A DNA stretch of 40,000 nucleotides from Granulicella rosea (GCF_900188085.1 NZ_FZOU01000015.1:14644-54643), one strand, 5' to 3'; positions 138 to 24,454 are shown, numbered from the stretch's first letter. Program-made: numbers and translations. Notes: generated by a model from the sequence alone, not told the origin.

Positions 138-644
138 ATGAGCACAAAACGAGTGAACACTCCAATTATTGAGCATGAAACTCGCGCCACCGCACTCGAT
201 GAGATTGATACCGCCATTATCCGGGTGCTGCAACGCAAGGGTCGCGCGACCAACGACGAGGTAGGGGATGCTGTGGGGCTCTCCTCTTCGGCAGCCTCCA
301 GGCGCATCCATGCGCTCGAAAGCCGCGGCGTGATTACGGGCTACCAGGCGCTGATCGAGAACAAGATTCTCGGCGCCGACATTACGGTCTTCGTGCGCGT
401 CACGCTTGAGCGCCAGGCCGCGGCAGCGCTCCAGAACTTCGAGTCGGCGATCCGCCGGTGCAACTCGGTCGCGAGCTGCCACCTGATGGCCGGCGAGTAC
501 GACTACATGCTGCAGGTCAAGGTCGCGAGCATGGCGGACTACGAACGGCTGCACCAGCAGGAGCTCTCGCGCTTCCCTGGCGTCAGCCGCCTGGAGTCGA
601 ACTTTGCCGTGCGCGACGTCATTGAGCGCGAAATCGGGATTTGA
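138..644 (+). CDS. Lrp/AsnC family transcriptional regulator
   Basis: 168-aa ORF of typical family size. N-terminal HTH (IDTAIIRVLQRKGRATNDEVGDAVGLSSSAASRRIHALESRGVI) plus C-terminal RAM/AsnC-type ligand domain (FVRVTLE...GEYDYMLQVKV...). Confidence 0.9.
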   Translation: MSTKRVNTPIIEHETRATALDEIDTAIIRVLQRKGRATNDEVGDAVGLSSSAASRRIHALESRGVITGYQALIENKILGADITVFVRVTLERQAAAALQNFESAIRRCNSVASCHLMAGEYDYMLQVKVASMADYERLHQQELSRFPGVSRLESNFAVRDVIEREIGI

Positions 645-2179: not shown

Positions 2180-3308
2180 GCGTGGCGTACCATTCGGCCA
2201 GCTTCCGGCCCATCAGGGTGGAGACCATCCGCGCCCCTTCGCCGCCCAGGTGTGCGTCGTCGTGCCAGATTCCGGGGACGTAAAGCTCCGGATACAGATC
2301 CGGCCGGCCGAGGTTGAGGATCGGCACATCGCGTCCTCCCACCGTGATGTGGTCGGGATAGCTCTTGATCTCGTCCACATCGCCAAACCTGGGCCATTTG
2401 ATGTAGACGAAGGAGAGGTGATGCACTGGACTGGCGGCAACCAGTTGTTCGATGAGGGCGAAGTGGCCACGCAGCACCTCGCCCTTTGCCACGGCAGGCT
2501 GCACGGGGCGGTTCGCAATCAACCGCGCAATGCCGTTCGTATCGGGCGCCAGAGCCCTCTCCAGGTGAAGTCCGCGGCGATCGTCCTCGGTCTGACTCAG
2601 CATCGTCTCCGCGTTCAGCGAAGGCGAAAAGATAAGGCTAGAGAGCATGCCGATGTTCAGGTAATGCAAGCCCATCGCCGCCATCGCGAAGCCCGAGCGT
2701 CCCCAGCGCTGCGTGACCGGCATGGCCAGGCTGGAGAACTGGCTCATCAGCCGCATCGTGGGCCAGTCGTAGATATTGATGGCGCGCGGATGCATCAGAT
2801 GATTGCCGCCGAAGTTGGCGCCGGCATCAAGCTCCAGCAGGATCAGGCAAGGCTGAGGCTGGGCCGGCGTCGTGAGTTGTTCGACAAACGACTTGGCCAT
2901 CGCGCGCTGCTCGGACTGACTTCCGCCCGCTACGGCGAGGTTGACAGAGTGCGTGGGCTCGGGCGTCTGGCTCATAATAGCGTCGAAGGCGCGCGGATCA
3001 AAGCCGTTGTTGATGTGGCTGGAGCCGAAGGCGGCAGAAAACTCGTCCCCATGCAAGCTCTGGAGCATGGCCAGCTTCTCGCTCCGCAAGTCCGCGTGCA
3101 GGCGGATGGTATCGTGGACTCGCGCAACGATCAGAGCATGAGTGACTGTAGCGGCAAACAGAAGACCGACGGTAAACAGGCCAAGGGCTTTGACTATCTC
3201 TCCAAGCCGGGGCTTCTCATCAGGAACTGCAGGCGTACTTTCCTGGCGGGTCTTCACTGAATTCTTACCGTCCAAAGAAGATAGCTGAGCGTTAAGTATA
3301 CAGGGCAC
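2151..3308 (-). CDS. Membrane-anchored SGNH/DltD/AlgJ-like accessory protein of the MBOAT acyltransferase (putative)
   Basis: One N-terminal TM helix (ALGLFTVGLLFAATVTHALIV) followed by an extracytoplasmic domain of about 320 aa. It has a Ser block (FGSSHINNGF) near its start and an Asp-x-x-His block (WHDDAHLGG) near its end, as in DltD/AlgJ/AlgX-type partners. It lies directly upstream of, and co-oriented with, the MBOAT gene. Confidence 0.55.
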   Translation of the reverse strand: MPCILNAQLSSLDGKNSVKTRQESTPAVPDEKPRLGEIVKALGLFTVGLLFAATVTHALIVARVHDTIRLHADLRSEKLAMLQSLHGDEFSAAFGSSHINNGFDPRAFDAIMSQTPEPTHSVNLAVAGGSQSEQRAMAKSFVEQLTTPAQPQPCLILLELDAGANFGGNHLMHPRAINIYDWPTMRLMSQFSSLAMPVTQRWGRSGFAMAAMGLHYLNIGMLSSLIFSPSLNAETMLSQTEDDRRGLHLERALAPDTNGIARLIANRPVQPAVAKGEVLRGHFALIEQLVAASPVHHLSFVYIKWPRFGDVDEIKSYPDHITVGGRDVPILNLGRPDLYPELYVPGIWHDDAHLGGEGARMVSTLMGRKLAEWYATHGAPAACGS

Positions 3309-3352
3309 GAATTTCCGTCCGATCGACAGCTGTATACCGTCCGCGTATCGCC

Positions 3353-3724
3353 GTGGGGCTCTCCTCGTCGGCTGCCTCGCGGCGCATCCATGCGCTTGAA
3401 AGCCGGGGCGTCATTACTGGTTACCAGGCGCTGATCGAGAACAAGATCCTCGGCGCGGGCATTACTATCTTCGTGCGGGTGACGCTCGAACGCCAGGCCG
3501 CGGCGGCGCTGTAGAATTTCGAGTCGGCGATTCGCCGCTGCAACTCGGTCGCAAGCTGCCACCTGATGGCTGGCGAACACGACTACATGCTGCAGGTGAA
3601 GGTCGCGAGCATGGCCGATTACGAACGCCTGCACCAGCAGGAGCTGTCGCGCTTTCCCGTGGTCAGCCGGTTGGAGTCGAACTTCGCCGTGCGCGACGTG
3701 ATCGAGCGTGAGATCGGCATTTAG
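3353..3724 (+). pseudogene. 5'-truncated, stop-interrupted second copy of the Lrp/AsnC gene (3' 372 bp only)
   Basis: Aligns without gaps to 273..644 at a constant offset of 3080 bp. My hand count is about 47 mismatches in 372 positions. The HTH-encoding 5' part and the start codon are missing. CAG (Gln) at 432-434 is TAG at 3512-3514. The tracked minus-strand ORF 3254..3727 is simply its antisense. Confidence 0.85.
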
Positions 3725-3737
3725 CACGGCGATTCGA

Positions 3738-4001
3738 TTACAGGTGCTTGCGCAGAATGTCGTCCACCCTCGCCTGCCAGCCGGCGCCTGAGGATCTTAG
3801 GGAGTTCACTACATCGGGCGACAGCCGTATCGACACGGGAACCTTTCTGGGCGCCTTTTGCGGTCCGCGTGTATGAGCTTTAAGCGCGGCTTGTAATCCT
3901 GCGGGCAGGCCACTCATGGGAACAGCGCGGGCGAAATCCTGCTGGGTCCACTCCGGATTGTCGCCTTGCTCAGCGGGCTTCGCGATACTCTTTTTGCTCA
4001 T
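3738..4001 (-). CDS. brnA: BrnA family antitoxin
   Basis: The 87-aa product starts at the ATG at 4001 (MSKKSIAKPAEQGD...). The C-terminal segment PRKVPVSIRLSPDVVNSLRSSGAGWQARVDDILRKHL matches the BrnA ribbon-helix-helix-type tail. It lies downstream of the BrnT gene and overlaps it by 32 nt. The 173-aa tracked ORF is an upstream over-extension. Confidence 0.75.
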   Translation of the reverse strand: MSKKSIAKPAEQGDNPEWTQQDFARAVPMSGLPAGLQAALKAHTRGPQKAPRKVPVSIRLSPDVVNSLRSSGAGWQARVDDILRKHL

Positions 4002-4281
4002 GTTTGGTTGCCTTCCGCAGACTGATAGCGCGAATCGTTTCGTCTTCCTGTGTGAACACCAGAGCGTAAATATGAGCCTCGATAAAGCCGATGGCGCGAT
4101 ACCGTATCTCGCCATAGTCTTCCCGGTCATCGACGGTATAGAGAGCGGAGTCGAAATCGAACTCTTCGGTACGGGCCAGGGAAATACGATGCTTTCGCTT
4201 GTTGATGGCATCTTTCGATGGGTCGAATTCGATCGCCACAAACCTGATTGTATATACATTCACGATGAATTCAACGAACAA
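3970..4281 (-). CDS. brnT: BrnT family toxin (DUF497 ribonuclease toxin)
   Basis: IEFDPSKDAINKRKHRISLARTEEFDFDSALYTVDDREDYGEIRYRAIGFIEAHIYALVFTQEDETIRAISLRKATKHEQKEY follows the BrnT pattern (FEWD..K...N..KHG.SF.EA...F.D......D......E.R....G......L.VV.T.R....RIIS.R.A...E). The likely true start is GTG at 4239 (VAIEFDP). Confidence 0.8.
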   Translation of the reverse strand: MFVEFIVNVYTIRFVAIEFDPSKDAINKRKHRISLARTEEFDFDSALYTVDDREDYGEIRYRAIGFIEAHIYALVFTQEDETIRAISLRKATKHEQKEYREAR

Positions 4282-4398
4282 TGCGCGGAAGTTCCCATGC
4301 CCTGACGTGCATACGCTGGATATATTTCACAGAACATGGGAGCGGGTGGGCTTCGTCCGTCATAGACTCATCTGTATGGATAGGACGGTTTCAAGGAC

Positions 4399-5775
4399 AT
4401 GAAGATTGCAGTAGTCGGTTCGGGTTACGTTGGGTTGGTCGCGGCTGTCTGCTTTGCTGAAATGGGTCACGACGTCATCTGCGTCGACAACGACGAGCGC
4501 AAGGTCAAGGCGTTGCAGGGTGGCGACTCGCTCATTCACGAGGAGTATCTGCCTGAGCTGCTGAACCGGTATCGCAATACCAAGGTTCTGTTCATGACCG
4601 ACCTTGCGGAGGCGACGCGCGAGTCCGAGGTGATCTTTATCGCCGTTGGTACGCCCCAGTCGGATACGGGCGACGCCGATCTGTCGTACGTCGAGGCCGT
4701 TGCATGTGAGATTGCGCGTTCGCTCACCAGCTACAAGGTACTGGTCGAGAAGAGTACCGTACCCGTCTACACGAACGAGTGGATACGCCGCGCGATCGAG
4801 CGCAACGGTGTCGCACGCAGCATGTTCGACGTGGTCTCAAACCCTGAGTTCCTGCGCGAAGGCACAGCCGTCGCCGACTTTCTCCACCCAGACCGGATCG
4901 TGGTCGGCGCAGACTCCGAGCGCGCCACCAAGCTGCTGCAGGAGATCTACGCCCCGCTGACCGAGGGCAGCTACTACCGCCGGCCGGATGCGATCACAGG
5001 CAGCTGTTCGGCTGAGGCGCTGCCTCCGTTGCTCATCACCTCGACCAAGTCGGCCGAGATCATTAAACATGCGTCGAATGCCTTTCTCGCGCTGAAGATC
5101 AGCTTCATCAACGCCGTCTCGAACCTGTGCGAGGCAGCCGATGCGGATGTCGAACAGGTCGCCATGGGAATGGGTCTGGACTCACGGATCGGCCCCAGGT
5201 TTCTGCGGCCGGGGATCGGCTATGGCGGCTCGTGCTTCCCCAAGGATGTCGCGGCCTTTCGCTCCGTTGCGGGTCAGCTTGGCGTCGACCTCGGCATTCT
5301 GGCCGAGGTCGAGAAGATCAACGCTCAGCAGAAGAAGCGCTTTCTGTCGAAGGTCCGCGCAGCACTGTGGACGCTGCGCGGCAAGCATCTCGCCGTGCTC
5401 GGCCTGGCGTTCAAGGGAGGCACGGACGATATCCGCGCTTCCCCTGCCATTGACCTCATCGGAATGCTGATCGGCGAAGGCTGTTCGATTACGGCCTACG
5501 ATCCAGCGGCTATCGAACGGGCCCGCGAGAAGATGCCGCCAAGCGCCTGCCTGAAGTATGTCGACGATCCGTATGTCGCGGCGAAGGACGCCGATGCCCT
5601 GCTGATTCTCACCGACTGGAGCGAGTTCGGCAGCCTCGAGCTGAAACGTCTCTACAAGACCATGCGCTACCCGATCGTCATCGATGGCCGCAATCTCTAC
5701 GAGCCGAAGGTGATGCTCGATAAAGGATTCACGTACGTCAGCATAGGGCGCCCAACCCTGCACCAGGCACGCTAA
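4399..5775 (+). CDS. ugd: UDP-glucose 6-dehydrogenase
   Basis: N-terminal Rossmann motif MKIAVVGSGYVGLV and catalytic Cys motif GYGGSCFPKD. Typical length of 458 aa. AAGGA RBS lies 2-6 nt upstream of the ATG. Confidence 0.95.
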   Translation: MKIAVVGSGYVGLVAAVCFAEMGHDVICVDNDERKVKALQGGDSLIHEEYLPELLNRYRNTKVLFMTDLAEATRESEVIFIAVGTPQSDTGDADLSYVEAVACEIARSLTSYKVLVEKSTVPVYTNEWIRRAIERNGVARSMFDVVSNPEFLREGTAVADFLHPDRIVVGADSERATKLLQEIYAPLTEGSYYRRPDAITGSCSAEALPPLLITSTKSAEIIKHASNAFLALKISFINAVSNLCEAADADVEQVAMGMGLDSRIGPRFLRPGIGYGGSCFPKDVAAFRSVAGQLGVDLGILAEVEKINAQQKKRFLSKVRAALWTLRGKHLAVLGLAFKGGTDDIRASPAIDLIGMLIGEGCSITAYDPAAIERAREKMPPSACLKYVDDPYVAAKDADALLILTDWSEFGSLELKRLYKTMRYPIVIDGRNLYEPKVMLDKGFTYVSIGRPTLHQAR

Positions 5776-5806
5776 GGCCAACTAAAATACCGTACCGATG
5801 CGTAAA

Positions 5807-5840
5807 GAGCCCTCTGCCCACTCCGGCAGAGGACTCTTTT
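5807..5840 (+). terminator. Rho-independent terminator of ugd
   Basis: The 12-bp stem gagccctctgcc / ggcagaggactc has one mismatch and a 6-nt loop. It is followed by TTTT and begins 31 nt after the ugd stop. Confidence 0.75.
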
Positions 5841-5972
5841 GTCGCGTTTTGCGACAGTGCGCTACACCCAGGTAACGAACGCTTTGCACGCGGTGTACGA
5901 AAGCGGCATTGCGTCCATTACCTCCGTGTAGAGCAACCTGAGACAGCGACCGCAAGACAAAACGCAGCACCG

Positions 5973-6315
5973 ATGAACCTCTTGAGCGCAGCGCTCAGGA
6001 CGGACATGATCGACCCCTTCGGCCAGCCCATCCTCTACATGCCCATGGTCAGCGCCGGACGTGGCAAGGTCACTGGCGTCGAGGTGCAGTACGACACCGA
6101 TCTGCACCGCCGTATCTTCGCGCAGATCAATGCGAGCTCCAGCAACGTCCAGCACCAGGCGCTCGACGGCGTATGGCGCCGCGCCAACTTCGACATGCCC
6201 GTCATGGCCAATATACTGGCCGGCGTTAATCTGACCCGACGTCAGATCCTCACCAGGTCCGTATGAGCTCACCCAGCTGGGCCGCCAGATGGACGGCGGT
6301 ATGTGGAGCTTCTGA
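5973..6315 (+). pseudogene. Decayed 3' fragment of a TonB-dependent-receptor-like outer-membrane protein gene (paralog of 37814..40000)
   Basis: The translation DPFGQPILYMPMVSAGRGKVTGVEVQYDTDLHRRIFAQINASSSNVQHQALDGVWRRANFDMPVMANILAGVNLTRRQILT aligns to DSFGQPYLYMPMVSAGRGKVLGFEAQYETNMKRRVFAQVNLTSRSVQHTALDGVWRRANYDMPILGNLLGGVRLSRRQVLT of the intact gene. About 0.26 kb is then missing and the frame shifts. The tail LTQLGRQMDGGMWSF-stop matches LTQMGRYMDGGMSWSF-stop. There is no 5' part or start. A GC-rich hairpin plus T-rich tract follows at 6341-6380. Confidence 0.8.
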
Positions 6316-6416
6316 ACGTTTAGAACGACCCTGCCCATCAGCCCCTCCGCCAGCGGGGGGCTTTCTACGTTGCTTTTCTCCGCAACCATAATAGAAGGGC
6401 GTCGATTCTTTTTGCC

Positions 6417-6456
6417 GTACCCAGGGTATGTTTCACCCCCTGGGTACGTTTCAACC
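6417..6456. repeat. Motif cluster 1: two direct GGGTAYGTTTCA units on CCCWGGG cores
   Basis: Sequence gtaCCCAGGGTATGTTTCAcCCCCTGGGTACGTTTCAacc, read directly. It lies upstream of the HTH-parA operon. Confidence 0.9.
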
Positions 6457-6514
6457 ATGGAGCCCTGTCCACGTTTCGTACGTAGGATAGAGCACCCTTC
6501 ATACCCTCCCCTGT

Positions 6515-6551
6515 GGATGAAACATCCCCACCCCCAGGGGTCGTTTCATCC
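6515..6551. repeat. Motif cluster 2: inverted repeat GGATGAAAC (6515-6523) / GTTTCATCC (6543-6551) with a 19-nt spacer containing CCCCAGGGG
   Basis: Read directly. It uses the same word set as the intragenic clusters, about 200 bp upstream of the HTH gene start. Confidence 0.9.
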
Positions 6552-6749
6552 ACACAGCTTAAGCAATATCTTAGGGAAGTGTTTTTAATGACAATCGGAA
6601 AGAAACGAGCGACGGCGACGTTTGACCTTGGTTCTGTCCGAGATGCTCCGAATCCAAAAAATCCATATTGGAAGGCCTTGTCGATTTCTGTCATGGGTTG
6701 TGTACTTTTACCCTTGTCGCTGCCGATATTATCCAGTAGGGTTACCTTC

Positions 6750-6959
6750 ATGAGAAAACCATCCCCGCGAAATGTGTCCATCTGGCTGCGATCGGCAGAG
6801 GTAGCGTCGGTCCTGGGAATCTCTCACCGTACTCTCATGCGTAAGCTCGCGGCAGGAAAGGTTTTAGAGCCCGCGCGCGATCCAGAAAACAATTACCGGC
6901 AATGGCGGCCGGAGGAAGTAAACGCCATTCAGCAGCAGCTAATGAGGGAAAAAGCATGA
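6750..6959 (+). CDS. Excisionase/MerR-type helix-turn-helix DNA-binding protein (HTH_17-like)
   Basis: The 69-aa product is MRKPSPRNVSIWLRSAEVASVLGISHRTLMRKLAAGKVLEPARDPENNYRQWRPEEVNAI... This follows the pattern (L)T..E.A..LG.S..T......G.......... .yr....v. Its stop overlaps the parA start (ATGA at 6956-6959). The start is uncertain: the tracked ORF begins at 6513, and ATG 6588 is an alternative. Confidence 0.6.
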   Translation: MRKPSPRNVSIWLRSAEVASVLGISHRTLMRKLAAGKVLEPARDPENNYRQWRPEEVNAIQQQLMREKA

Positions 6960-7738
6960 TTCGTCTCGTCATCTCCAACCAGCGTGGCGGCGTCTCGAAG
7001 ACCACGACCACCACTACCCTTGCCCGGGAGTTCGCCGACCGCGGCAAGCGCGTCCTGGTGATCGACACGGACCCTCAGGGATCGATCAGCAGCGTGCTCG
7101 GACTCAAGCCCGAGTATGGCCTGTACAACTTCGTCATCGAGAAGCTCCGTTTCGACGACTGCATCGTGAAGATCAGTCCGCAGCTCCATGTCCTCTGCTC
7201 CAATCGTGAGACGACCAAGGTCGAGACGATCCTGATGGGAAACGTCGCGCGCGAGCACGCCTTCAGTCAGCTCTTTTCGCAGGTCGAGAAGGACTACGAC
7301 GTGGTCCTGATCGACGTCAGCCCGTCGATCACGCTGCTGCAGACCTGCGCCATGGTGTACGCGGAGCGGGTGCTCATCCCCATTGGCATGGACACGCTCT
7401 CGTTCCAGGGTGCGATGGCCTCGATCGAAGCCTCGAAGTCGCTCAACCAGCTGCTGAAGGCAAACATCCGCACGGTCGGGCTACTGCCAGTGATGGTTGA
7501 CCGGCGCCTAGCCATGACGACGACGGTTCTTGAAGGCCTCGAAGGTCTGTCGCAGGGAACGAAGATTCCGATGCTGCACCCGATCCGTACGGACCAGAGC
7601 GTGACCAAAGCCGCTCGTGCGGCGCAGTTCATCGTCGACTACGACCCCAAATGCAAGGCAGCCGAAGACTACCACCAGGTGGCGGATGAGTTGGAGAAGC
7701 TGCTCAAGGAAGATTTGAATGTCACAGCTGCCGCGTAG
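6956..7738 (+). CDS. parA: ParA/Soj family partition ATPase
   Basis: Deviant Walker A region LVISNQRGGVSKTTT, Walker A' VLVIDTDPQGS and Walker B VVLIDVSPS, in about 260 aa. The position of the signature first lysine (KGGxxK[ST]) is Arg here. Confidence 0.9.
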   Translation: MIRLVISNQRGGVSKTTTTTTLAREFADRGKRVLVIDTDPQGSISSVLGLKPEYGLYNFVIEKLRFDDCIVKISPQLHVLCSNRETTKVETILMGNVAREHAFSQLFSQVEKDYDVVLIDVSPSITLLQTCAMVYAERVLIPIGMDTLSFQGAMASIEASKSLNQLLKANIRTVGLLPVMVDRRLAMTTTVLEGLEGLSQGTKIPMLHPIRTDQSVTKAARAAQFIVDYDPKCKAAEDYHQVADELEKLLKEDLNVTAAA

Positions 7739-9140
7739 CTCACGCAGACAGAAGATCGAACCCCTGAACTGGACCGAGGCCGCACAGGCTCCGGCCCTGA
7801 AGGGGATGACTTCGTTTCTGGATGTGAGCGCAGAGGATGTCCGCAACGGAACCTTCCATAGCTTTGGCCCGCACTTTATGGGCAAGCATGTTTCATCCCC
7901 TAGAGATGAAACATCCCCAGGGGATGAAACATCAGTTGATCGTTCTGCATCCCGTCAGATCCGTTCGTCCAGTGCAGTCACTCCTATTACGGTCAGGAAG
8001 CTAACGACATCGACTGCTCCGCACGATCTGGCAGAGCCCGTATCGCGCGCAGGGGTGGAATTGTACCCAGGGGTGCTTTCATCCCCTGGGTATGAAACGT
8101 ATATAGGCTCTGATGAGCCTCTTGCCGCCGACCTCGCACCGCAGGTTCGAGATGGTTTGACCCCTGGGCGTGGCCGTTCCAAGGTAAGGCGTTGTGTGCT
8201 GGCTCAGGATGGCCACTCGCTCGGCGAGGAGGCGATATACCAGGTGATGTGGCGCGCCGGACGGCCTGAGAACAACGACCCGAACTGTGCCCGCACGATC
8301 CGGATCGGTGCGGCAGACATCGGCTGCAAGGTCAATATGGCGAAGAAGAATGTGCGCCAGAACATCTCCCGGCTCTTCGAGAAGCTAGCGATCGAGATTC
8401 TCGAAGACTTCGAGACCATGAGTTCGCAAGCCCGGCTCTACCGGGTCTACTCGTATAAGCAGATTCTGGAGCGCAGGCGTGCGGCTGGGCTGGACTACGT
8501 GCTGCGCAATAAGGGGGTAGTGTTCTGCACGGCGGATGGAGAAGAGGTTGTTTCATCCCCTGCCTACGTTTCATCCCCAGGGGATGAAACGTATATACGT
8601 CCTGCTGCTCCGAAGAAGCGCCGCGCTCCGCAGCCTCCCAACGCACTGGCTCCGCTTCATCCAGCCCTTCGGCAGGCAGCGCCGCAGGAGAGCTCCGAAA
8701 GCATGGACGTCGAGATCGTTTCGCAGGCGCTCAATCGGTACTGGCCTGTCGATCAGCCGGCGGCCGAGCAGCTGATTCGCGACTGTCGCCGCATCCGTCC
8801 CGATGCGACGGGGGAGGAGATATCCTTCTTTGTCCGTGAGAAGCTTGAGCTGGCGCGACAGAACCGGAATATCGCCAACCCGATTGGCCTGATCCTTGCG
8901 ACCGTGCCCCAGTCATTCGTAGGCGCCACCTTTCTCGGCTTTCGCGAGCGCATGGGGCGTCAGGCAATGCTCGCGGCGGAGGAGCAGCAGCGGAAGCAGC
9001 AGGAACAGGCGGAGCTTTCGACCTGGCTGCTGAACGAGCGAGAGCGCTACGAGACGATCGCGGGAGACCCGGATCGCTCGGACAGAGAACGGATCAACGC
9101 GGAGAATCGCTTGCGTCAGCTCGCGTCGTGGAACCTGTAA
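7719..9140 (+). CDS. ParA-coupled winged-helix DNA-binding protein (candidate centromere-binding or replication-initiator protein); function unknown
   Basis: The start ATG at 7719 overlaps the parA stop (7736-7738). The central part IRIGAADIGCKVNMAKKNVRQNISRLFEKLAIEILEDF...RLYRVYSYKQILERRR looks like a winged-helix/HTH domain. The C-terminus is a charged coiled-coil-like tail (EEQQRKQQEQAEL...). The N-terminal third is low complexity and carries three copies of the DNA motif, so the true start could lie further downstream. Confidence 0.6.
   Translation: MSQLPRSSRRQKIEPLNWTEAAQAPALKGMTSFLDVSAEDVRNGTFHSFGPHFMGKHVSSPRDETSPGDETSVDRSASRQIRSSSAVTPITVRKLTTSTAPHDLAEPVSRAGVELYPGVLSSPGYETYIGSDEPLAADLAPQVRDGLTPGRGRSKVRRCVLAQDGHSLGEEAIYQVMWRAGRPENNDPNCARTIRIGAADIGCKVNMAKKNVRQNISRLFEKLAIEILEDFETMSSQARLYRVYSYKQILERRRAAGLDYVLRNKGVVFCTADGEEVVSSPAYVSSPGDETYIRPAAPKKRRAPQPPNALAPLHPALRQAAPQESSESMDVEIVSQALNRYWPVDQPAAEQLIRDCRRIRPDATGEEISFFVREKLELARQNRNIANPIGLILATVPQSFVGATFLGFRERMGRQAMLAAEEQQRKQQEQAELSTWLLNERERYETIAGDPDRSDRERINAENRLRQLASWNL
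7888..7933. repeat. Motif cluster 3 (inside the WH-protein CDS)
   Basis: Sequence atGTTTCATCCCCtagaGATGAAACATCCCCAGGGGATGAAACatc, with GTTTCATCCCC at 7890-7900 and the palindrome ATCCCCAGGGGAT at 7913-7925. It encodes HVSSPRDETSPGDETS. Confidence 0.9.
8063..8107. repeat. Motif cluster 4 (inside the WH-protein CDS)
   Basis: Sequence gtaCCCAGGGGtgcTTTCATCCCCTGGGtATGAAACgtatata. It encodes YPGVLSSPGYETYI. Confidence 0.9.
8548..8598. repeat. Motif cluster 5 (inside the WH-protein CDS), with a perfect 23-nt palindrome at 8568-8590
   Basis: Sequence gttGTTTCATCCCCtgcctacGTTTCATCCCCAGGGGATGAAACgtatatac. GTTTCATCCCC-A-GGGGATGAAAC is a perfect 11-1-11 palindrome. The cluster encodes VVSSPAYVSSPGDETYIR. 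Confidence 0.9.
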
Positions 9141-10130: not shown

Positions 10131-10224
10131 CCCAAATGGCCGCCACGGGTCGTCGGAGTTCGCGCAAGACGGGATGCGGCATATCGTTTGGAGCGGTGAC
10201 GGTTGTGTCGCAAGGGAGATCGTA

Positions 10225-12105
10225 ATGAAGCGTAACGTTCCTGTCCTAGCTCTTTTCGTCCTGTGCGCTTCGAGTGGCGTTGTCCATGCACAGACGCTCC
10301 CTGCAGGCCCGGAGCCGCAGCTCCATCTCGCTTTGAACAATTTCTCGACGCCTGAAAGCCTTCATCTCACATCCTCCGATACGGAGCCGGCTGCCAGGGC
10401 AGTCGAGACATCGGAGGCGTTTCGCGCCGCGTCCTGGCATGAAGGCCTGTTCAAGAAGCGTCAGGGCTTCAAGTTCGCGGGCAACCGCAGCTCGGTCTAT
10501 CTCCCCGACGATAGCTGGATCTACCCCGAGATGACGCGGCTGTATTCGATGGGCTATGTCGACTCGATGTATCTAAGCATGCGGCCGTGGACGCGTCTCA
10601 GCCTGCTGCACATGTTGCAGGAGACGCAGGACAACATCATGAGCGGCTCGAACGAAGAGGCGAAGGAAATTCTCGCCGTCGTGCTCCGCGAGCTGACCGA
10701 CGAGGAGACCGTAAACGCCCATTCTGGCGGAACGATCTATGGCGTGGACTCCATGTACACGCGGATGATGGGCATCGCCGGCCCGTCGCTGCGCGACAGC
10801 TACAACCTGGGCCAGACGATCGTCAACGACTACGGCAGACCGTATCAGCCGGGATTCAACACCATCGATGGCGTCTCGACGACAGAAGAAAAGGGACGCT
10901 TCTCGCTTTACATCCGCGGCGAGTATCAGCATTCGCCCTCCGGTACGGGATACTCGCCCGAACTGGCGAACACACTCTCCATATTGGATATCGGTCTGCC
11001 GTATATCGCGCCCAACGCGCCGCAGGCCACCATTCCCGCCGGCCCGATCGCCGCGCAAAATCCCTTCCGGCTGGTGGAGGCGGTGCTCTCCTTTCACTTC
11101 CTCAATCACGAGATTTCGGGCGGCAAGACCGATTCATGGCTTGGCCCCGGTCAGGGCGGATCGCTCGCATGGAGCAACAATGCGGAGAACATCTACTCCT
11201 TCCGCATCGATCGCGTGGAGCCGTTGTACATCCCGCTACTCTCCCGCGTGCTCGGCCCGGTTCGATACAACTTCATGTACGGAAGCCTGAAGGGACACAC
11301 CGCGCCGAACAGCCCGTATGTTCACGAGGAGGCGTTCTCCTTCCGGCCAACCAAGAACTTCGAGTTTGCGTTCGAACGTACGGTGATCTTCGGCGGGGAA
11401 GGCCATACGCCGGTGACCCTGCATACCTTCCTGCGAAGCTTCTTTTCGCTCTCCGACGTGGAAGACGACCCCGGCGTGAAGCTGATTGGACAGGATCCCG
11501 GCGCCCGCTTCAGCGATTTCAGCTTCTCCTGGCGGCTGCCGTTTATCAGCAAGTACGTCACCCTGTACGCCGACTCCGAGTGCCATGACGACGTGACGCC
11601 CATCAGCGCACCACGCCGCGCGGCTTACCGGCCGGGATTCGTCATCTCGCAGATTCCGGGTGCGAGGAAGATGGAGTTGCGGGTCGAAGGTCTGGATTCG
11701 AACCAGCCGACAACCCGCAGCAACCTCGGCCACTTCACCTACTTCGAAGGCTTCCAGCCGCAGGGTTACACGAACAAGGGATTTATCATGGGCGACTGGC
11801 TCGGTCGCCAGGCGGTCGGCGAACAGAGCTGGCTGACCTACCATCTCTCGGGCAACGAGCTGGTCCAGTTGGAGTATGTGCACAAGAAGAATGCGCACGA
11901 CTTCACCGAGGGCGGAACGACGCAGAACCAGTTCAAACTGAGTGTGGTGAAGCGGTTCAAGAAGGATCTCGAGCTGAACGCCTGGGTACAGCAGGAGCGC
12001 TTCAAGGCGCCTCTGTATCTTCCCGGCGCGCGGAACAATACGACGGCGGTGGTTCAGTTGACGTACTTCCCGAAGCTTCGCCTGGCGGGGCTGGGCAAGG
12101 ACTAG
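10225..12105 (+). CDS. wzi: Capsule assembly Wzi family outer-membrane protein (putative)
   Basis: Start ATG at 10225 with GGGAGA 6-11 nt upstream. Signal peptide MKRNVPVLALFVLCASSGVVHA-QT. The N-terminal segment SWIYPEMTRLYSMGYVDSMYLSMRPWTRLSLLHMLQE fits the Wzi-family helical bundle motif. The remaining part is rich in alternating aromatic/Gly beta-strand patterns typical of a large beta-barrel. Confidence 0.55.
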   Translation: MKRNVPVLALFVLCASSGVVHAQTLPAGPEPQLHLALNNFSTPESLHLTSSDTEPAARAVETSEAFRAASWHEGLFKKRQGFKFAGNRSSVYLPDDSWIYPEMTRLYSMGYVDSMYLSMRPWTRLSLLHMLQETQDNIMSGSNEEAKEILAVVLRELTDEETVNAHSGGTIYGVDSMYTRMMGIAGPSLRDSYNLGQTIVNDYGRPYQPGFNTIDGVSTTEEKGRFSLYIRGEYQHSPSGTGYSPELANTLSILDIGLPYIAPNAPQATIPAGPIAAQNPFRLVEAVLSFHFLNHEISGGKTDSWLGPGQGGSLAWSNNAENIYSFRIDRVEPLYIPLLSRVLGPVRYNFMYGSLKGHTAPNSPYVHEEAFSFRPTKNFEFAFERTVIFGGEGHTPVTLHTFLRSFFSLSDVEDDPGVKLIGQDPGARFSDFSFSWRLPFISKYVTLYADSECHDDVTPISAPRRAAYRPGFVISQIPGARKMELRVEGLDSNQPTTRSNLGHFTYFEGFQPQGYTNKGFIMGDWLGRQAVGEQSWLTYHLSGNELVQLEYVHKKNAHDFTEGGTTQNQFKLSVVKRFKKDLELNAWVQQERFKAPLYLPGARNNTTAVVQLTYFPKLRLAGLGKD

Positions 12106-12250: not shown

Positions 12251-15200
12251 TTAGTGAGTGATCTTGCGAATCCGCTGGTTGCCGGAGTCCGAGAAGTAGA
12301 TGTTGCCCTTGCTGTCGGTCACGATGCCGGTGGACACGTAGTAGTTGAAGTTGACCTGCCCGGCCGACGCCAGGCCGCCATCGCCGGTGAAGCCCAATAC
12401 GCCGTTGCCGATGATGGTGTTAATGATTCCTGCCTGCGAGACGACGCGAATCCGATCGTCGCCGGTGGCTATATAGACGTTGCCCGCACTGTCGACGGCA
12501 AGGCCGTAGGGCTGATAGATGGTTGCTGACGCACCGGTGGCGCTGCCTCCGTCTCCGGAGAAATAGCATGGATAGACGGTGTAGTAAGAGGGTGAGCCAG
12601 CCAGCATTGTGACGATACCCGCCGGATTCACCTCCGCTACGTGGCAACGCTCGTCGCCGACGTACAGGTTTCCAGAGGCATCGATTGCCACGGAGAAGAT
12701 TTTGTTGAATGCCATGTTGGTTGCGAGGCCGCCGTAACCCCAGTCATTCGAGCCGCCGCCGACGACGGTGTTGATGACGCCGCCCGGGGACAGCCTGCGG
12801 ATACGGTTGTTGGTGTAGTCGGCGATGTAGAGGTTGCCGGCTCTGTCGACCGCGAGGCCAACGGGGTTGGCCAGCATCGCGCTGGTCCCCTGGCCGCCGT
12901 CGCCGCTGAAGCCCGATATGCCCGTGCCTGCGACGGTGACGATGATGCCATTGGGTGAGATCCTGCGGATGACGTTGTTACCCGTGTCGGCGATGAAGAT
13001 GTTGCCGGTGAGATCGACCGCGACCGATCTTGGCGCGTTGAGCCATGCCGCCGTCGCCTGGCCGCCATCGCCGTAATAGCCCGTTGAGCCGTTGCCCGCC
13101 ACGGTGGTGATGATGCCCGCCGGGGTGACCATGCGGATGCGATTGTTCGCCGTGTCGGCGATGTAGAGATTGCCGCTGCCATCCATGGCGACTCCGGTCG
13201 GATTGTTGACCGAGGCGTTGATGCCGGGGCCACCGTCTCCGCCATAGGTGGCGGCGCCGTTGCCGATGACGGTGTTGATGATCCCGGCGGCGGGGTTGAT
13301 GTAGTACCCGGCGGTTGCGGTCAGGCTGGCGGTGTAGCTTGCAGAGAGCGTGATGGCGTTGATGGTCTCGGAGCTCGAGACGGTGACTGGCCCGGTGTAG
13401 AGGGTGGAGGCAGAGGTGGGATTGGACCCATCGGTGGTGTAGTAGATGGGGGTTCCCGAGGTGGTCGAGATCGTCACCGTCTGGGCCGCGGTGAAGGTTC
13501 CGGCTGCAGGCGAGAAGGTCGGGGTTGCGGCGGCTGGTAGAAGGGTGACGCTATAAGCGGCGCTGCTGACAGAGCTTGCGGCATAGCCGCCGCCCGAGGC
13601 GAAGGCCTTGACGGTCTGCGAGGCAGAGATGGCGATGGGTGCGGTGTAGAGGGTAGACGCCGCGGTCGGCGTGGAGCCGTCGATGGTGTAGTAGATCGGC
13701 ACGCCGGGCGAGCTGGTCGAGAGGGAAAGATACTGCGTGGAGGTGTAACTTCCGGAGGCGAGCGAGAAGATCGGCGCGGAGGCGGTGAAGGCGTTCGAGT
13801 AGCTCACCTTACGGACGCGCTGATTGTAGGTGTCGGCGAGGTAAAGATTGCCAGTCTTGTCGACCCACATCCCGGTGGGGTTCAGGGTGGAGAAGTAAAG
13901 AGACGCGGTGGTCGCGTTGACTCCGTCTCCGCTGTAGCCCGAGCCGCCGTTTCCTGCAACCGTGGAGATGATGCCGCCCGTAGTTACCTTACGGATACGC
14001 TCGTTGCCGCTATCGACGATGTAGAGATTGCCGGCGGTGTCGGCGAAGATGCCATTCGGAAGATTGAGGGTTGCACTGGCGGCGGCGGCTCCATCGCCGG
14101 AGAAGCTCTTCGTGCCGGTGCCGGCGAAGGTGGAGATGATGCCAGCGGCGTTGACCTTGCGAATGCGGTTATTGCCGATGTCGGCGATGTAGACGTTGCC
14201 GCTGGCGTCTGCCGCGATGCCTCCGACGTTGGCCAGCGAGGCGCTGGTTCCGATGGCTCCATCTCCGCTGAAGCCCGTTGTGCCGTTGCCCGCGATGGTG
14301 GAGATGATGCCGGAGGTGTCGATCTTGCGGACCCGGTAGGTGCCTGCGTCGGCGATATAGAGGTTGCCATTGCTGTCGAACGCGAGGGCCTGAGGGTATG
14401 CTAGCTCGGCGCTGGTCGCTGCGCCACCGTCGCCGGTGAAGCCTCGGGTTCCGTTGCCTGCGATGGTGGAGATGATGCCTGCGGGGGTGACCTTGCGAAC
14501 GCGGTTGTTGGTGCTGTCCGCGATATACACGTTGCCGCTGCTATCGACGGCAACGCCTAAAGCAGCGCCAATCTGCGCGGCGCTGGCCGCTCCGCCGTCT
14601 CCGCTGAATCCGGAGACGCCTGTGCCGGCGAAGGTGGAGATGACGCCTGCCGGCGTGACTTTACGGATGCGGTAGTTGTTCCAGTCGTCGATATAGACGT
14701 TGCCGCTGTTGTCTACGGCCACCGCATACGGGGAATAAAGCTGGGCGCTGGTGGCGGCGATGCCGTCGCCGTTATAGCCCGAGGTTCCAGTGCCTGCGAT
14801 GGTGGTGATGATGCCGATGCCCTGGTTGATGTAGTAGCCGCCGCTCGCAACGGAGCTGGCGACATAGCCGGTAGGCGCGGCAAAGGCGTTGATCGTCTCG
14901 GAGGCCGCAACTGTGATGGCGCCAGTGTAGAGCGTGGATGAGGTGGTGGGGGTCGAGCCGTCGGTGGTGTAGTAGATGGGGCCGCCGCTGCTGGAGGTAA
15001 GGGTGACCGTCTGTCCCGCAGCATAGTTGCCCGGCGCGGGCGAGAAGGTGGGTGTGCTGGCGACCTGCGGGAGCGAGATGACGTAGTTCGCGATGGCGAC
15101 TGAGCTGTTGTTCAGCAGACTGGTTTGGACGGCGATTGCCTTCAGGGTCTCGGATGTACGGACCGTGACGGGAGCGCTGTACAGAGAAGACGTCGTTGTC

Positions 15201-18200
15201 GGCGTCGTGCCGTCGGTGGTGTAGTAAATCGACGCGCCCGTTGTCGCGGTGGTGATGGCGACGACCTGGACCGAGGTGTAGATTCCGGAGGCGACGGAGA
15301 AGGTCGGCGTTGCGGCATATGCGTTGGAGTAGGTTACCTTGCGGACGCGCGAGTTGGCCCAATCGGTGAGGTAGAGGTTGCCTATGCTATCGGCGAAGAT
15401 GCCGGTAGGGTTGTTCAACTCTGCGGTGACCGCATTGATGCCATCGCTGTTGTAGCCTGCCGTACCGTTTCCGGCGACGGTGGTGATGATGCCGGAGGGA
15501 TCGACCTTGCGGAAGCGCTGGGCGTCGGCGAAGTAGAAGTTGCCGGCCGTATCGACGTTCACGGTAAATGGCTGGTTCAGGGTCGCGCTGGTGGCGGCGA
15601 ATCCGTCGCCGGAGAAGCCTTGGACACCAGTGCCCGCGACGGTGGAGATGACGCCGGCGGAGTTCACCTTGCGGATGCGGTTATTGCTTTCGTCCGCGAT
15701 GTAGATATTGCCGGCGCCATCGACCGCGACGCCCGAGGGGTAGGACAGTTGGGCGCTCGTGGCCGGTCCGCCGTCTCCGCTGAAGCCCGCCGTGCCGTTG
15801 CCGGCGACGGTAGAGATGATGCCTGCGGAGTTGACCTTGCGGATCTTGTTGTTGCCGATGTCGGCGATGTAGAGGTTTCCGCTGCCATCGACCGCGACAT
15901 ACAGACGGTTGGACAAGGTGGCGCTGGTGGCCAGTCCGCCGTCGCCGCTGGAGCCCTGGGCGCCTGTGCCTGCGACGGTGGTGATGTTGCCTGTCGTATC
16001 GACCTTGCGAATGCGCAGGTTTAAGCTGTCTCCTATATAAAGGTTGCCGGCGCTGTCGATGGCCAGGCCTTCCGGATAGTTGAGATACGCGGTGGTTGCT
16101 GGGCCTCCGTCGCCCCCATAGGCAAGATGGCCTGGGCTGCCCGCGATGATGGAGATGACGCCTGCGGGGGTGACCTTGCGAACGCAACTGCAGGAGCCCG
16201 CGGCATTGGTGATGTACAGGTTGCCGCTGCGGTCCATGACGGTGGTGTAGGGGAAGGCGAGCTCCGCGCCGGTCGCCTGGCTGCCATCGCCTGTGTATCC
16301 GGAGATTCCATCGCCGGCAACAGTGGAGATGATACCGATGCCCTGGTTGATGAAGTAACCCGCGCTGACGACGGAGCTGCTGGTATAGCCCGTGGCGGTG
16401 GCAATGGCGTTGATCGTCTCGGGCGTCGAGACCGTAATGGGACCGGTGTAGAGCGTGGACGAGGTGGTAGGCGTCGAGCCATCCGTCGTGTAATAGACGG
16501 CGCCGCTGATGGGGGCGGTAATGGAGACCGTCTGGGCGATGGAGTAGTTGCCTGGTGCAGGCGAAAAGGTGACCGCGCCGGGGTAGGGCAGCGATCCGGT
16601 GATCGTGTAGGCGGCGCTGGCGACGGGGCTCGATGTGTAACCGGCGCCGGTGGCGATGGCGTTGACGGTCTGCGAGGCGGCGACGGTGATGGGCGCGGTG
16701 TAGATATTGGACGAGGTGGTGGGCGTGGAGCCGTCGGTCGTGTAGTAGATCGACGTATCGGGAGAGCTGGTCGAGATGGAGACGGTCTGAGCGGCGCTGT
16801 AGCTTCCGGCAGCCGGTGAGAAGACCGGAGTGGCGGCGGCGAGCCCGGTCGAGTAGGTGATCTTGCGGACGCGCTGATTGTAGGTGTCGGCGAGGTAGAG
16901 ATTGCCGAAGCTGTCGATCGTCAGCGTATCTATTGCATAGTAAACAAAGCTGAACGAAGCGGCCAGTGGACTGCCTCCGTCGCCGCCGTATGATGGGGTG
17001 CCGCCTTTTCCGGCGACGGTGGAGATGATGCCAGCAGGTGTGACCTTGCGGATGCGATCGTTGTCGGTGTCGACGATATAGAGATTTCCGGCCGTATCGA
17101 AGGCGATGCCACTTGGATTGTTGAGCAAAGCGGCGCTGGCGGGGCCGCCGTCACCGCCGAATCCCCCCGCTAAACCAGGCGTGCCGGCGCCTACGGCGGT
17201 GGTCAGATAGCCGGTGGTATCTACCTTGAGAATCCGGTTGTAGGCCGGGTCGGCGATGTAGAGATTGCCGCTGGTGTCTAAGGCGATGCCACCAATCTGA
17301 TAGGACAACTCGGCGCTGATCGCCGGTCCATCGCCGGAGTAGCCTGCCGTGCCATTGCCCGCAATGAGGGTGAGCCCATGGGTAATGTGGTCCATCTTGT
17401 AAACTCGGCTACCGATGCCGCTGAACTGGCCTTGGCCTGGGTAGGTGAAGTAAATATTGCCTGCCTGATCGAATATGAAGGACTGGCTGGCCCCCGCGAC
17501 AACGGTGGAGATAACACCGTCCGGCGCGATCCTGTGAATAGATCCGTCCGAGAAATAGACGTTGCCACTGTTATCGACGACCACGCCTCCTGGGTATCCG
17601 ATCTGTGCGAGCGTGGCCGGTCCACCCTCGCCGGTGCTTCCGGAGACGCCCGTGCCGGCGATAGTGGAGATGATGCCTGCCGGAGTGACCTTGCGAATGC
17701 GGTAATTGACCGAATCAGCAATGTAGAGATTGCCGCTGCTGTCAACCGCAGTCGCCGTTGGAGTGGAGAGCGGTGTGCTGGTGGCGGGGACGCCATCGCC
17801 GTAGTATCCCGTCTCACCATCGCCGGCGATGGTGTTGATGACGCCGACGCCCTGGTTTAAGAAGTATCCGCCGGCCGTGACCGTACTGCTGGCATAGCCG
17901 GAGGGGAAGGAGATGGCGCTGATTGTCTCGGAGGTCTGGACGGTGATCGGACCGGTGTAGAGCGTGGACGAGGTGGTGGGGGCGGAGCCGTCGGTGGTGT
18001 AGTAGATGGCTCCTGTGGTGGAGGAGATCGTCACCGTCTGTCCTGCGGCGTAGTTGCCGGGCGCGGGCGAGAGGATGGGCGCCGAGGCGACCGGAATCTG
18101 AATGACATAGGCCGCAGAGGCGACGGCGCTGTTGTTGCTGTAGCCGGGCAAGACCGCAATGGCCTTGATGGTCTGCGAGGTGGTGAGAGTGATGGGGCCG

Positions 18201-19800
18201 GTATAGACCGCTGAGGTCGTATAAGCCAGGGTCGCGGTCGGAAGGGAGCCGTCGGTGGTGTAGTGGATCGTTGCGCCCGGGGTCGTGGTGGAGAGGCTTA
18301 TAACCTGGGCCGAGGTGTAGGTTCCGGCCGCGACCGAGAAGGTGGGGGTGGCGGCGGCATTTGGATTGAAGTAGGTAACCTTACGAATTCGATAGTTAGC
18401 CGTGTCGGCGATATAAAGATTGCCAGTGCTGTCAACGCCTACTCCCTGGGGAACATTCAATTGGGCGGTCGTCGCGCTGATGAAGTCGCCGTTGTAGCCT
18501 GCGGCTCCGGTTCCGGCGACGGTTGTGATGACGCCGGACGAGTCGATTCTGCGGACCCGCTGATTGTCCATGAAGTAGAGGTTGCCGGCTGCGTCGGAGC
18601 TGATGTAGGTCGGCCCGTAGAGAGTGGCGCTGAGGGCTGGCCCTCCGTCGCCGGTAGAGCCTCGAACACCCGTGCCAGCGATTGTGGTGATGATGCCGTT
18701 CGTGTCGACCTTGCGGATTCTATAGTTGGTCGAGTCGGCAATGTACATATTGCCGGCTGCGTCGAACGCAACGCTGTTGGGGGTTAACCCGGCGCTGGTA
18801 GCCGGTCCTCCATCTCCGCTGAAGGCCGCCGAGCCATTGCCCACGACGGTGGTGATGATGCCCGAGGCGTCGACCTTGCGAACCCGGTAGTTTCCGGTAT
18901 CAGCGATATAGGCAAGGCCTGTGTTATCTAAGCCGACGGTAAAAGGGGTGGTGAATTTCGCGGCAGTTGCGAGCCCTCCGTCTCCGCTGAAGCCCACGCC
19001 GCCAAAACCCGCGATGGTGGAGATGGTGCCCGCCGTGGTGAACTTGCGAACGAGGATATCGTTCTGATCCGCAATATAGAGGTTGCCGCCCTTGTCGAAG
19101 GCAATGTTGGATGGGCTGCTAAGGGCAGCGGGAATTGTCAGGGTGGAGATGACGCCTGTGGGGGTAATCTTCCGAATGATGTTGCCGCTGACGAAATAGA
19201 GGTTGCCGCTGCCGTCGACCGCTGGGGCTATGCCGTAGATCTCTGCATTGCTGGCCTGGGCTCCGTCGCCCGTGTCTCCATCGATTCCGCCCGCGTAGGT
19301 GGAGATGATGCCGCTGCCCTGGTTGATGAAGTAGCCCCCGCTGACGATGGAGCTGTTGACGTAGCCGGTAGCAGTTGCGATGGCGCTGATGGTCTCGGAT
19401 GCCGGGACGGAGATAGGCGCGGTGTAGCGTGTGGACGAGGTGGTGGGCGTCGAGCCGTCCGTGGTGTAGTAGATGGCTCCGCTGGTGGGGGCGGACAGGG
19501 TCACCGTTTGGGCCGTGGCGTAGTCGCCGGGCATCGGGGAGAAGGTTACCGCGCCGGGGTAGGTCACAGGCGTGATGATGGTGTACGCCGCGCTGGCGAT
19601 AGCGCTGGGCGCGCGGTTCAGGTAGGCGACGGCCGTGAGGGTTTCGGACGCAGCGATGGCGATGGCGCCGCCGGAGTAGACGGAGGAGAAGATCGTCGGC
19701 GTTGTGCCATTGGTGGTGTAGTAGACCGTCGCGCCGGTTGTGGTCTCGGCGATGGTCGCCGTCTGGGCGCCGGTGTAAGTTCCGGCCGCGAGCGAGAAGG
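12251..19800 (-). repeat. Five tandem intragenic super-repeats with a period of about 1.5 kb
   Basis: The YYTTDG-encoding word (plus-strand cc(g/a)tcggtggtgtagtagat and variants) recurs in pairs near 13440/13685, 14970/15222, 16490/16745, 18000/18260 and 19465/19725. Confidence 0.85.
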
Positions 19801-20797: not shown

Positions 20798-20877
20798 GGA
20801 AATCCTCGTGTGCAAGCTGTTCTACCCATCGCCTTGTGTAAGCGTGGGGATTGTTTGCAGGTATGCCGAGAATTTAC

Positions 20878-24297: not shown

Positions 24298-24454
24298 CAG
24301 AAGCTCCTGTGCGATCTCGTCTCAACAGTTTACAGGAAGATGCAGACAGAGCGAGGCTTCCTCGCGAGGGTCGTGGAGCCCCCTGAAGGCGGCGGGTCGG
24401 GGGTGGTTCGGTCTGGTATATTCTAAGAGATCAAGGAAGAGCACCCCAGACCAT

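Follow-up and report, generated by a model that had tools for sequence, protein, structure and literature searches.

Why does an operon built around a ParA-type ATPase carry one short palindromic DNA word both upstream of its genes and inside the coding sequence of its last gene, and which protein reads this word? The question is raised by a 40,000-nucleotide stretch of Granulicella rosea (GCF_900188085.1, NZ_FZOU01000015.1:14644-54643; hereafter the window, with coordinates counted from its first letter), in which five clusters of the word accompany the genes for a small helix-turn-helix (HTH) protein, a ParA-type ATPase, and a 473-amino-acid protein that we call X. Four observations form the core of our answer: the word is constrained at the level of DNA, it is confined to this module, the winged-helix domain of X co-varies with it, and its in-gene copies fall where X is predicted to be disordered. 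We favour, with moderate confidence, the reading that the words are cognate sites of X which together form the split centromere and operator of a ParA partition cassette, both binding and partition being predictions.

The module (6267-9140) comprises a 483-bp intergenic space, a three-gene operon in which the start of each later gene overlaps the end of the preceding one, and the five motif clusters. The layout of X was taken from an alignment of homologs and from AlphaFold2 models, linkers being segments with a predicted local distance difference test (pLDDT) score below 50.

6417-6456, upstream cluster 1: two direct 18-bp units, CCCAGGGTATGTTTCACC / CCCTGGGTACGTTTCAAC
6509-6553, upstream cluster 2: inverted pair TGTGGATGAAAC...GTTTCATCCACA around CCCCACCCCCAGGGG, adjoining the AT-rich leader
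6540-6720, + strand, low-GC leader from the upstream sites to the HTH start: GC 0.37-0.43 versus a window mean of 0.60
6750-6959, + strand, small HTH protein, 69 amino acids: weak HTH_17/MerR/excisionase-like matches; its stop overlaps the parA start
6956-7738, + strand, ParA-type ATPase, 260 amino acids: AAA_31 E=1e-37, CbiA 1e-18, ParA 1e-11
7719-9140, + strand, X, 473 amino acids: its start overlaps the parA end by 20 nt
7740-7856, + strand, conserved N-terminal peptide of X (SRRQKIEPLNW..APALKGMTSFLD): residues 8-46, after the basic start MSQLPRSSRRQK
X residues 51-151, disordered linker 1
7888-7933, in-gene cluster 3: X residues 57-72 (VSSPRDETSPGDET), in linker 1
8063-8107, in-gene cluster 4: X residues 115-130 (LSSPGYETY), in linker 1
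8172-8543, + strand, winged helix-turn-helix domain of X: residues 152-275
8548-8598, in-gene cluster 5: X residues 277-294 (VSSPAYVSSPGDETY), at the start of linker 2
X residues 280-324, disordered linker 2
8691-9128, + strand, C-domain and coiled coil of X: residues 325-470

A word constrained as DNA and confined to one module

All five clusters are present where the preliminary description of this DNA had placed them. In the 18-bp repeat unit, a palindromic core of 9 bp (CCCCWGGGG) is joined to an arm of equal length (ATGAAACAY); direct copies follow one another at 18-bp spacing (6416/6434 and 8549/8567), and inverted pairs build a 23-bp 11-1-11 palindrome, TACGTTTCATCCCCAGGGGATGAAACGTA. 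The perfect palindrome described at 8568-8590 is real and in fact longer, extending as 14-1-14 over 8565-8593 (TACGTTTCATCCCC A GGGGATGAAACGTA, 100% complementary); it lies in cluster 5, the position of which is the best conserved among the sites of homologs. Upstream cluster 1, which includes a degenerate third arm at 6463-6486, is located in the intergenic space 3' of an open reading frame at 5973-6266. In the window, GTTTCATCCCC has 11 matches with at most one mismatch, and the 15-mer GTTTCATCCCCWGGG has 7 with at most one and 10 with at most two mismatches, all of them within 6430-8590, compared to chance expectations for GTTTCATCCCCWGGG of 0 and 0.03, respectively, from first-order Markov resamplings of the window. 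At two mismatches or fewer, the remaining 37.8 kb contain no match; at three or fewer, 12 matches lie inside the interval and a single one outside (28275). The exact heptamer GTTTCAT occurs elsewhere in the window only at 175-181 (- strand) and 35638-35644 (+ strand). A repeat analysis of the module found no second repeat family.

The three in-gene clusters are, as had been noted, read in the same frame to give VSSPRDETSPGDET, LSSPGYETY, and VSSPAYVSSPGDETY, a frame that supplies small polar residues fit for a linker. Homologs keep peptides such as VSSPAYVSSPGDET at the same place, which, together with the common frame, would suit a short linear peptide motif (SSPGDET), and the full palindromes could conceivably fold as hairpins in the mRNA. 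To separate DNA from peptide, codons were compared among seven loci whose X proteins are 44-64% identical. Over the 146 invariant amino-acid columns with degenerate codons, the mean pairwise codon identity is 0.40, meaning that synonymous sites are saturated; within the word, by contrast, GGG at G68, G124, and G288, GAA at E70, and GAT at D289 are identical in 7/7. Synonymous positions are thus fixed across the SSPGDET segments (for VSSPGDET, GTGAGCAGCCCGGGCGACGAGACC would be a synonymous recoding), which is the nucleotide-versus-amino-acid comparison that the preliminary description had proposed. Moreover, the word occurs in both orientations (read forward as VSSPG, in reverse as PGDET), in non-coding DNA 1290-1355 bp 5' of the X start of homologous loci, and, in some loci, directly after the X stop codon. 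Among 36 non-redundant loci, all in-gene copies (98/98) use one frame per orientation, and in the window all three in-gene clusters lie within the two linkers, sites being found only where the pLDDT is below 50. Because synonymous positions are fixed, both orientations and non-coding copies exist, and a single frame is used, the DNA word appears to be primary and the protein seems to tolerate it only in disordered segments, in line with the earlier suggestion that DNA rather than peptide is conserved.

The idea of a conserved peptide alone was accordingly rejected on the fixed codons and the non-coding copies; in other lineages, entirely different peptides stand at the same positions. An mRNA hairpin was discarded as well, as most copies are single units that are unable to form one and as copies occur in both orientations and partly in non-coding DNA; over the palindromes, Rfam 15 returned only sub-threshold microRNA-hairpin matches and none at gathering score. 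A generic repeat of the repetitive extragenic palindromic (REP) or miniature inverted-repeat transposable element (MITE) type would be expected to scatter; besides its absence from the other 37.8 kb of the window, the word (at most one mismatch) has 147 matches in the 182 kb of module DNA of 65 related loci but only two in their 233 kb of flanking DNA, which rules out a dispersed genomic repeat in the available sequence. Taken together, a peptide motif, hairpin, or generic repeat is scarcely credible as the conserved entity. As in a type I partition cassette, the repeated cis sites are adjacent to and specific for the operon, and the claimed confinement to the HTH-parA-winged-helix module extends to these relatives. 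What did not hold is that the word is private to this genome: it is common to a family of plasmid modules from Acidobacteriota and from soil and peat metagenomes. The exact 23-bp palindrome has no match in the metagenome contigs, perfect palindromes being rare even in relatives. Searching genome contigs for related loci with a single protein returned only two loci, and a word-index search with the 90-residue C-domain only five fragments.

Some features of single sites are less general. Both arms of upstream cluster 2 read TCATCCACA, one mismatch away from a DnaA box; genuine DnaA boxes at 6512 and 6546 were nonetheless rejected, these 9-mers beside the GC 0.37-0.43 stretch being variants of the word that are not kept in other loci. 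Clusters 4 and 5 each continue into ACGTATATA(G/C)G (8097-8107 and 8589-8599), which is read as ETYI and may represent a longer site or a stretch of bendable DNA; CGTATATG, which is similar, stands next to an upstream site of one related locus (L001, ~1916), although this is not general across loci.

Protein X as the candidate reader

X has no sequence match in Pfam, NCBIfam, or the PDB, and a profile search of its family against PDB sequences yielded noise only. In the AlphaFold2 model, residues 209-221 (KKNVRQNISRLFE) form the recognition helix (helix 3) of the winged-helix domain. The C-domain proper (residues 325-410; pLDDT 91) consists of four helices with the motif ..FFVREKLE..NRxIxNPxGLILATVPQSF.. 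and is followed by a long coiled coil (residues 411-470); both presumably serve dimerisation and/or partner binding. Foldseek searches of the whole model against the PDB gave generic winged helices only (E about 0.03-0.1), namely MarR and CRP but also the centromere binders AspA (4rs8, 5k5q) and TubR (3m8e), and the confident C-domain model had no fold match. The C-domain, for which there is no Pfam model, recurs in at least 406 clusters at 50% identity, so that X appears to be a member of a large undescribed protein family.

Which protein reads the word can be addressed by sister lineages in which the word has changed. In lineage B, X is ~40% identical to the window protein and no word of the window type (type A) is found; instead, the 18-bp unit GCGAWTCGCTWACAGG occurs in 173 copies in the modules versus 3 in the flanks. 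B-type units (for example GCGATTCGCTTACAGGTA) likewise build 23-bp 11-1-11 palindromes, and their offsets equal those of type A (about -1300, +170, +360, +900-960, and +1460-1520). Identities to X of the window differ by domain as follows:

B-type X proteins: N-terminal peptide 67-69%, C-domain 64-67%, winged helix 49-53%, helix 3 47%
A-type X proteins: N-terminal peptide down to 41-59%, C-domain down to 47-52%, winged helix 77-90%, helix 3 80-100%

The winged-helix domain and its helix 3 hence co-vary with the word, whereas ParA is 80-95% identical across loci of both types and the recognition helix of the small HTH protein is nearly identical between A and B. The small HTH protein was rejected as reader since its recognition helix stays constant while the word changes. 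As a change of word goes along with a change in the winged helix of X, but not in the small HTH helix or in ParA, the word is most likely the docking site of the X winged helix. Of the earlier proposal that the clusters are centromere or iteron sites for the adjacent DNA-binding proteins, the part concerning X gains support from these different words at the same positions, whereas the part concerning the small HTH protein does not stand.

In relatives that are more distant still (28-35% identity), the winged-helix coding segment is directly flanked by palindromes of other sequence, for example TCGACCATGGTCGA, CGGGTATACCCG, CAGGTATACCTGA, and TGCTGTWACAGCA, which are translated into recurring linker peptides (STMVE or SGIPE, among others). 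The 'site - winged helix - site' block appears to behave as an exchangeable specificity cassette. One of these relatives (locus L066; HTH-ParA-X operon) encodes an X-like protein at 5001-6821 with a C-terminal DnaA_N-like domain and has an upstream array of ~530 bp (3300-3826) of TGCTGTWACAGCA units, with more copies in the central linker codons (5875-6040). In another lineage (L062, genes 2742-3575 and 3572-4495; identical protein in L058), the partner is an AAA_22 ATPase and the N-terminal peptide of the X-like protein differs; CGGGTATACCCG palindromes still flank the part coding for the winged helix. Orphan B-type units were encountered in A-type loci as well: at 3729-3744 of the window, GCGATTCGATTACAGG (one mismatch to GCGAWTCGCTWACAGG; ~0.003 expected per 40 kb) lies between the stop codon of a brnA gene and the next gene, and a second one occurs in L040 at ~7346. 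They may be relics of cassette exchange or reflect cross-talk between plasmid classes.

Partition, replication, or regulation

The translational coupling of the X gene to parA that had been claimed is confirmed by their overlap. X lies downstream of and overlaps the parA stop, an order kept in nearly all loci, and wherever the upstream sequence reaches far enough it is coupled to ParA, one lineage excepted. The ATPase at 6956-7738 is a ParA-family protein of the deviant Walker-A type, as expected for a type I partition cassette, with partial matches to ParA_partition, RepA, and PrgP (the first two below their curated cut-offs). The small HTH protein, which weakly matches residues 30-86 of the TIGR03453 RepA model, resembles a detached N-terminal HTH of a type-Ia ParA, so that both proteins together look like a split type-Ia ParA. 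The leader at 6540-6720 is presumed to contain the promoter and 5' untranslated region, although a simple sigma-70 scan found no + strand promoter in it; alternatively, it could be a DNA-unwinding element.

As a partition cassette, the module would work as follows. A dimer of X would bind the 23-bp 11-1-11 palindrome formed by two inverted 18-bp units and, from the ParB position of a ParA operon, act as centromere-binding adaptor. Its winged helix would read the sites, its basic N-terminal peptide, a putative ParA interaction motif, would contact ParA, and the C-domain with the coiled coil would hold dimers or higher oligomers together. The clusters at 6417-6553, 7888-7933, 8063-8107, and 8548-8598 would constitute one split centromere of ~2.2 kb, extending in some relatives just past the stop codon, through which ParA would segregate the plasmid. 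The upstream inverted pair (6509-6553) probably doubles as operator for autoregulation, as it adjoins the only AT-rich stretch (6540-6720). Sites within the X gene would be tolerated because they fall only on disordered segments and in the frame giving VSSPG or PGDET, and their position on both sides of the winged-helix coding segment would allow site and reader to be inherited as one specificity cassette. A partition cassette with X as the putative centromere-binding adaptor is favoured by three lines of evidence. X occupies the ParB position and is coupled to ParA; its N-terminal peptide tracks ParA identity (r about 0.85; seven loci, computed by hand) and is changed where the partner is an AAA_22 ATPase; and the sites are dispersed in clusters over ~2 kb, with the 530-bp array in L066, as is typical of centromeres.

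The closest working precedent appears to be the ParA-ParT-parS system of SCP2 from Streptomyces coelicolor, in which ParT binds ParA through a basic N-terminal peptide and parS is contained in parT itself (PMC12260392). Both proteins have a flexible, positively charged N-terminal peptide (containing SRR in ParT, starting MSQLPRSSRRQK in X), a middle DNA-binding domain, a linker, and a C-terminal dimerisation region (predicted for X), both are devoid of a CTPase domain, and both have an inverted-repeat site, the centromere in ParT and a candidate in X, inside their own coding sequence. However, ParT has a ParB-type HTH with an N-domain helix alpha2 gate, whereas the model of X shows a strand-containing winged helix; ParT uses one 18-bp site with sliding, while X has five multi-unit clusters in upstream and linker-coding DNA, and its operon includes the extra small HTH gene 5' of parA. 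X does not appear to be a homolog of ParT or ParB, the likeness to ParT probably lying in the way of working only. On chromosomes, parS is reportedly also found inside spo0J/parB, which would again be a palindromic site in the gene of a (for X: putative) binding protein beside parA. There, however, a single parS lies in a region coding for a folded domain, whereas the clusters in X are multiple and dictate linker peptide, and neither the ParB_N (PF02195) CTPase domain nor a ParB-type HTH was matched with Pfam or NCBIfam in X or in 20 + 75 relatives. TubR/tubC, pNOB8 AspA, and TP228 ParG/parH share with the module short repeat arrays near the operon that double as operator, and TubR and AspA also the winged-helix fold (weak Foldseek matches). 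These are proteins of ~80-100 amino acids that use TubZ or a separate ParB adaptor, whereas the multidomain X of 473 amino acids appears to be reader and adaptor in one, with sites inside its own gene.

Several findings weigh against this partition reading. X belongs to no known centromere-binding family, and its winged-helix fold matches are generic and of weak E value. The C-domain is conserved to a very high degree, beyond the needs of a dimeriser, and in the one distant lineage mentioned above the X-like gene is coupled to an AAA_22 ATPase rather than to ParA. Furthermore, out of 75 distant members of the X family, 7 match Pfam DnaA_N (best E 6e-9), 5 match DnaD_N, and 7 match HTH_36, the DnaA_N-like domain being located at the very C-terminus in relatives in which the HTH-ParA-X operon is retained. 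No separate initiator gene was seen in the 40-kb window or in the fetched flanks, and the upstream sites adjoin the AT-rich stretch with the lowest GC of the region, like the iterons of an origin. Conceivably, then, the words function as iterons of replication, with X as plasmid initiator, or as initiator and ParA adaptor at once, and with the origin in and around its gene; the direct repeats at 6417-6456 and the AT-rich DNA at 6540-6720 would form the melting region, and 6509-6553 would be an autorepression operator. In RepA_N plasmids such as pSK41 and pAD1, repeated sites for the encoded protein reportedly lie as iterons in the poorly conserved central, linker-coding segment of rep, with a DNA-binding domain that resembles a winged helix on one side and a C-terminal domain that binds a partner on the other. 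X, however, has no RepA_N match in Pfam, is coupled to ParA, has a ParB-like N-terminal peptide, and carries sites on both sides of its DNA-binding domain as well as upstream of the operon. A further precedent is offered by repABC replicons of Alphaproteobacteria, in which oriV lies inside repC (PMC3155836). Here as there, one operon encodes a ParA-type ATPase and a downstream DNA-binding protein (predicted for X) with an internal cis site, the position of the centromere (for X, of the candidate sites) is variable (upstream, internal, or downstream), and HTH protein and ParA together look like a RepA in two parts. The X operon differs by having no RepB/ParB gene, no RepC similarity, and no evident counter-transcribed RNA, and by cis sites that are short palindromic repeats instead of an A+T-rich origin region inside the gene.

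Nevertheless, iterons of a replication initiator strike us as rather unlikely. X itself is not similar to a known Rep family (Rep_3, RepA_N, RepC, or TrfA), matches to DnaA_N, DnaD_N, and HTH_36 being restricted to distant relatives; the DnaA_N of some relatives corresponds in position to the coiled coil of the window protein, and domain I of DnaA can also serve simply for dimerisation. Five clusters over 2.2 kb, none of those within the gene lying beside an AT-rich stretch, fit a dispersed centromere better than a compact origin, the L066 array far exceeds those of typical origins, and nearly all loci couple X to a segregation ATPase. The search for initiator genes covered ~±5-10 kb of each plasmid, and a Rep gene could lie elsewhere. 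GC skew was rejected as an origin marker, its profile being dominated by gene orientation. That X performs both tasks, initiating replication and handing the plasmid to ParA with the same 18-bp arrays as origin iterons and centromere, we regard as doubtful; between centromere and iteron, sequence alone fits either. Partition proteins commonly autoregulate, and the sites could also be mere transcriptional operators or roadblocks by which X, alone or jointly with ParA and the HTH protein, represses and attenuates its own operon: the upstream inverted pair directly adjoins the AT-rich leader, and in-gene sites could stop elongation. Yet one operator would be enough for repression, while four to five clusters are kept at fixed positions, including after the stop codon, and the tight coupling to ParA would be pointless without a cis site for segregation in a module that has no other repeat family, which makes a purely regulatory role very unlikely.

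What is new here is that a maintenance module linked to ParA includes a predicted adaptor of an undescribed family, the sites of which lie systematically in its own linker codons. The cis sites of the X family can be read straight from the DNA, and the predicted binding sites sit in the codons of disordered linkers on both sides of the DNA-binding domain and switch with that domain, a natural example of dual coding and of tight reader-site linkage. Should X combine initiator and adaptor, the 'site - winged helix - site' cassette would be portable, and swapping it would create a new incompatibility group with ParA, N-terminal peptide, and C-domain unchanged. The module would then be a clear natural case of linker sequence dictated by a protein's own DNA sites, as well as a compact, previously undescribed maintenance system of plasmids from Acidobacteriota and related soil bacteria. 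Incompatibility classes (A, B, and others) can be predicted, and the predicted centromere or origin might be usable for acidobacterial vectors. Acidobacteriota are a dominant soil phylum, and the maintenance functions of their plasmids are essentially uncharacterised.

Plasmid setting and neighbouring genes

X is 100% identical to a shorter annotated "hypothetical protein" on a 55-kb contig of G. rosea that looks plasmid-like. The public gene model (SAMN05421770_11520, NCBI) is truncated to 314 amino acids, corresponding to about the last 314 codons of 7719-9140; as homologs keep the full 473-residue frame together with the N-terminal peptide, the first linker, and the two site clusters therein, the model can be corrected accordingly. 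A homolog of X is encoded on plasmid CP184533.1 of Telmatobacter bradus, the record of which begins at parA, and other homologous modules lie beside type IV secretion genes, NikA, SLT, and tyrosine recombinases; one fetched relative contig (a fragment of ~8-11 kb) runs into type IV secretion genes. With homologous modules on the T. bradus plasmid or beside such genes, the word and its operon would belong to a plasmid maintenance module. BLASTN and TBLASTN searches of PLSDB plasmids with the module and with X gave no match, and a literature search for a description of the module found nothing.

Beyond the module, the window contains on its - strand (3738-4281) a type II toxin-antitoxin pair of BrnT (3970-4281) and BrnA (within 3738-4259), which lies ~2.5 kb from the maintenance module and is consistent with a plasmid origin of the contig. 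On the other side, a capsule/exopolysaccharide cluster comprises, in addition to glycosyltransferases, an MBOAT protein, and an AT3-SGNH acyltransferase, the following genes:

10174-12105, Wzi
12251-20815, - strand, giant protein of 2854 amino acids with NHL/teneurin-type propeller repeats and ten CHB_HEX_C/Fn3_assoc modules; DNA repeat period 168 bp
24275-26749, Wzz-type tyrosine kinase

Finally, an unrelated tandem array with a period of ~35 bp that contains CGATTGCGC was found downstream of AAA/SLT genes on a 137-kb metagenomic plasmid-like contig (L007, 11134-11432).

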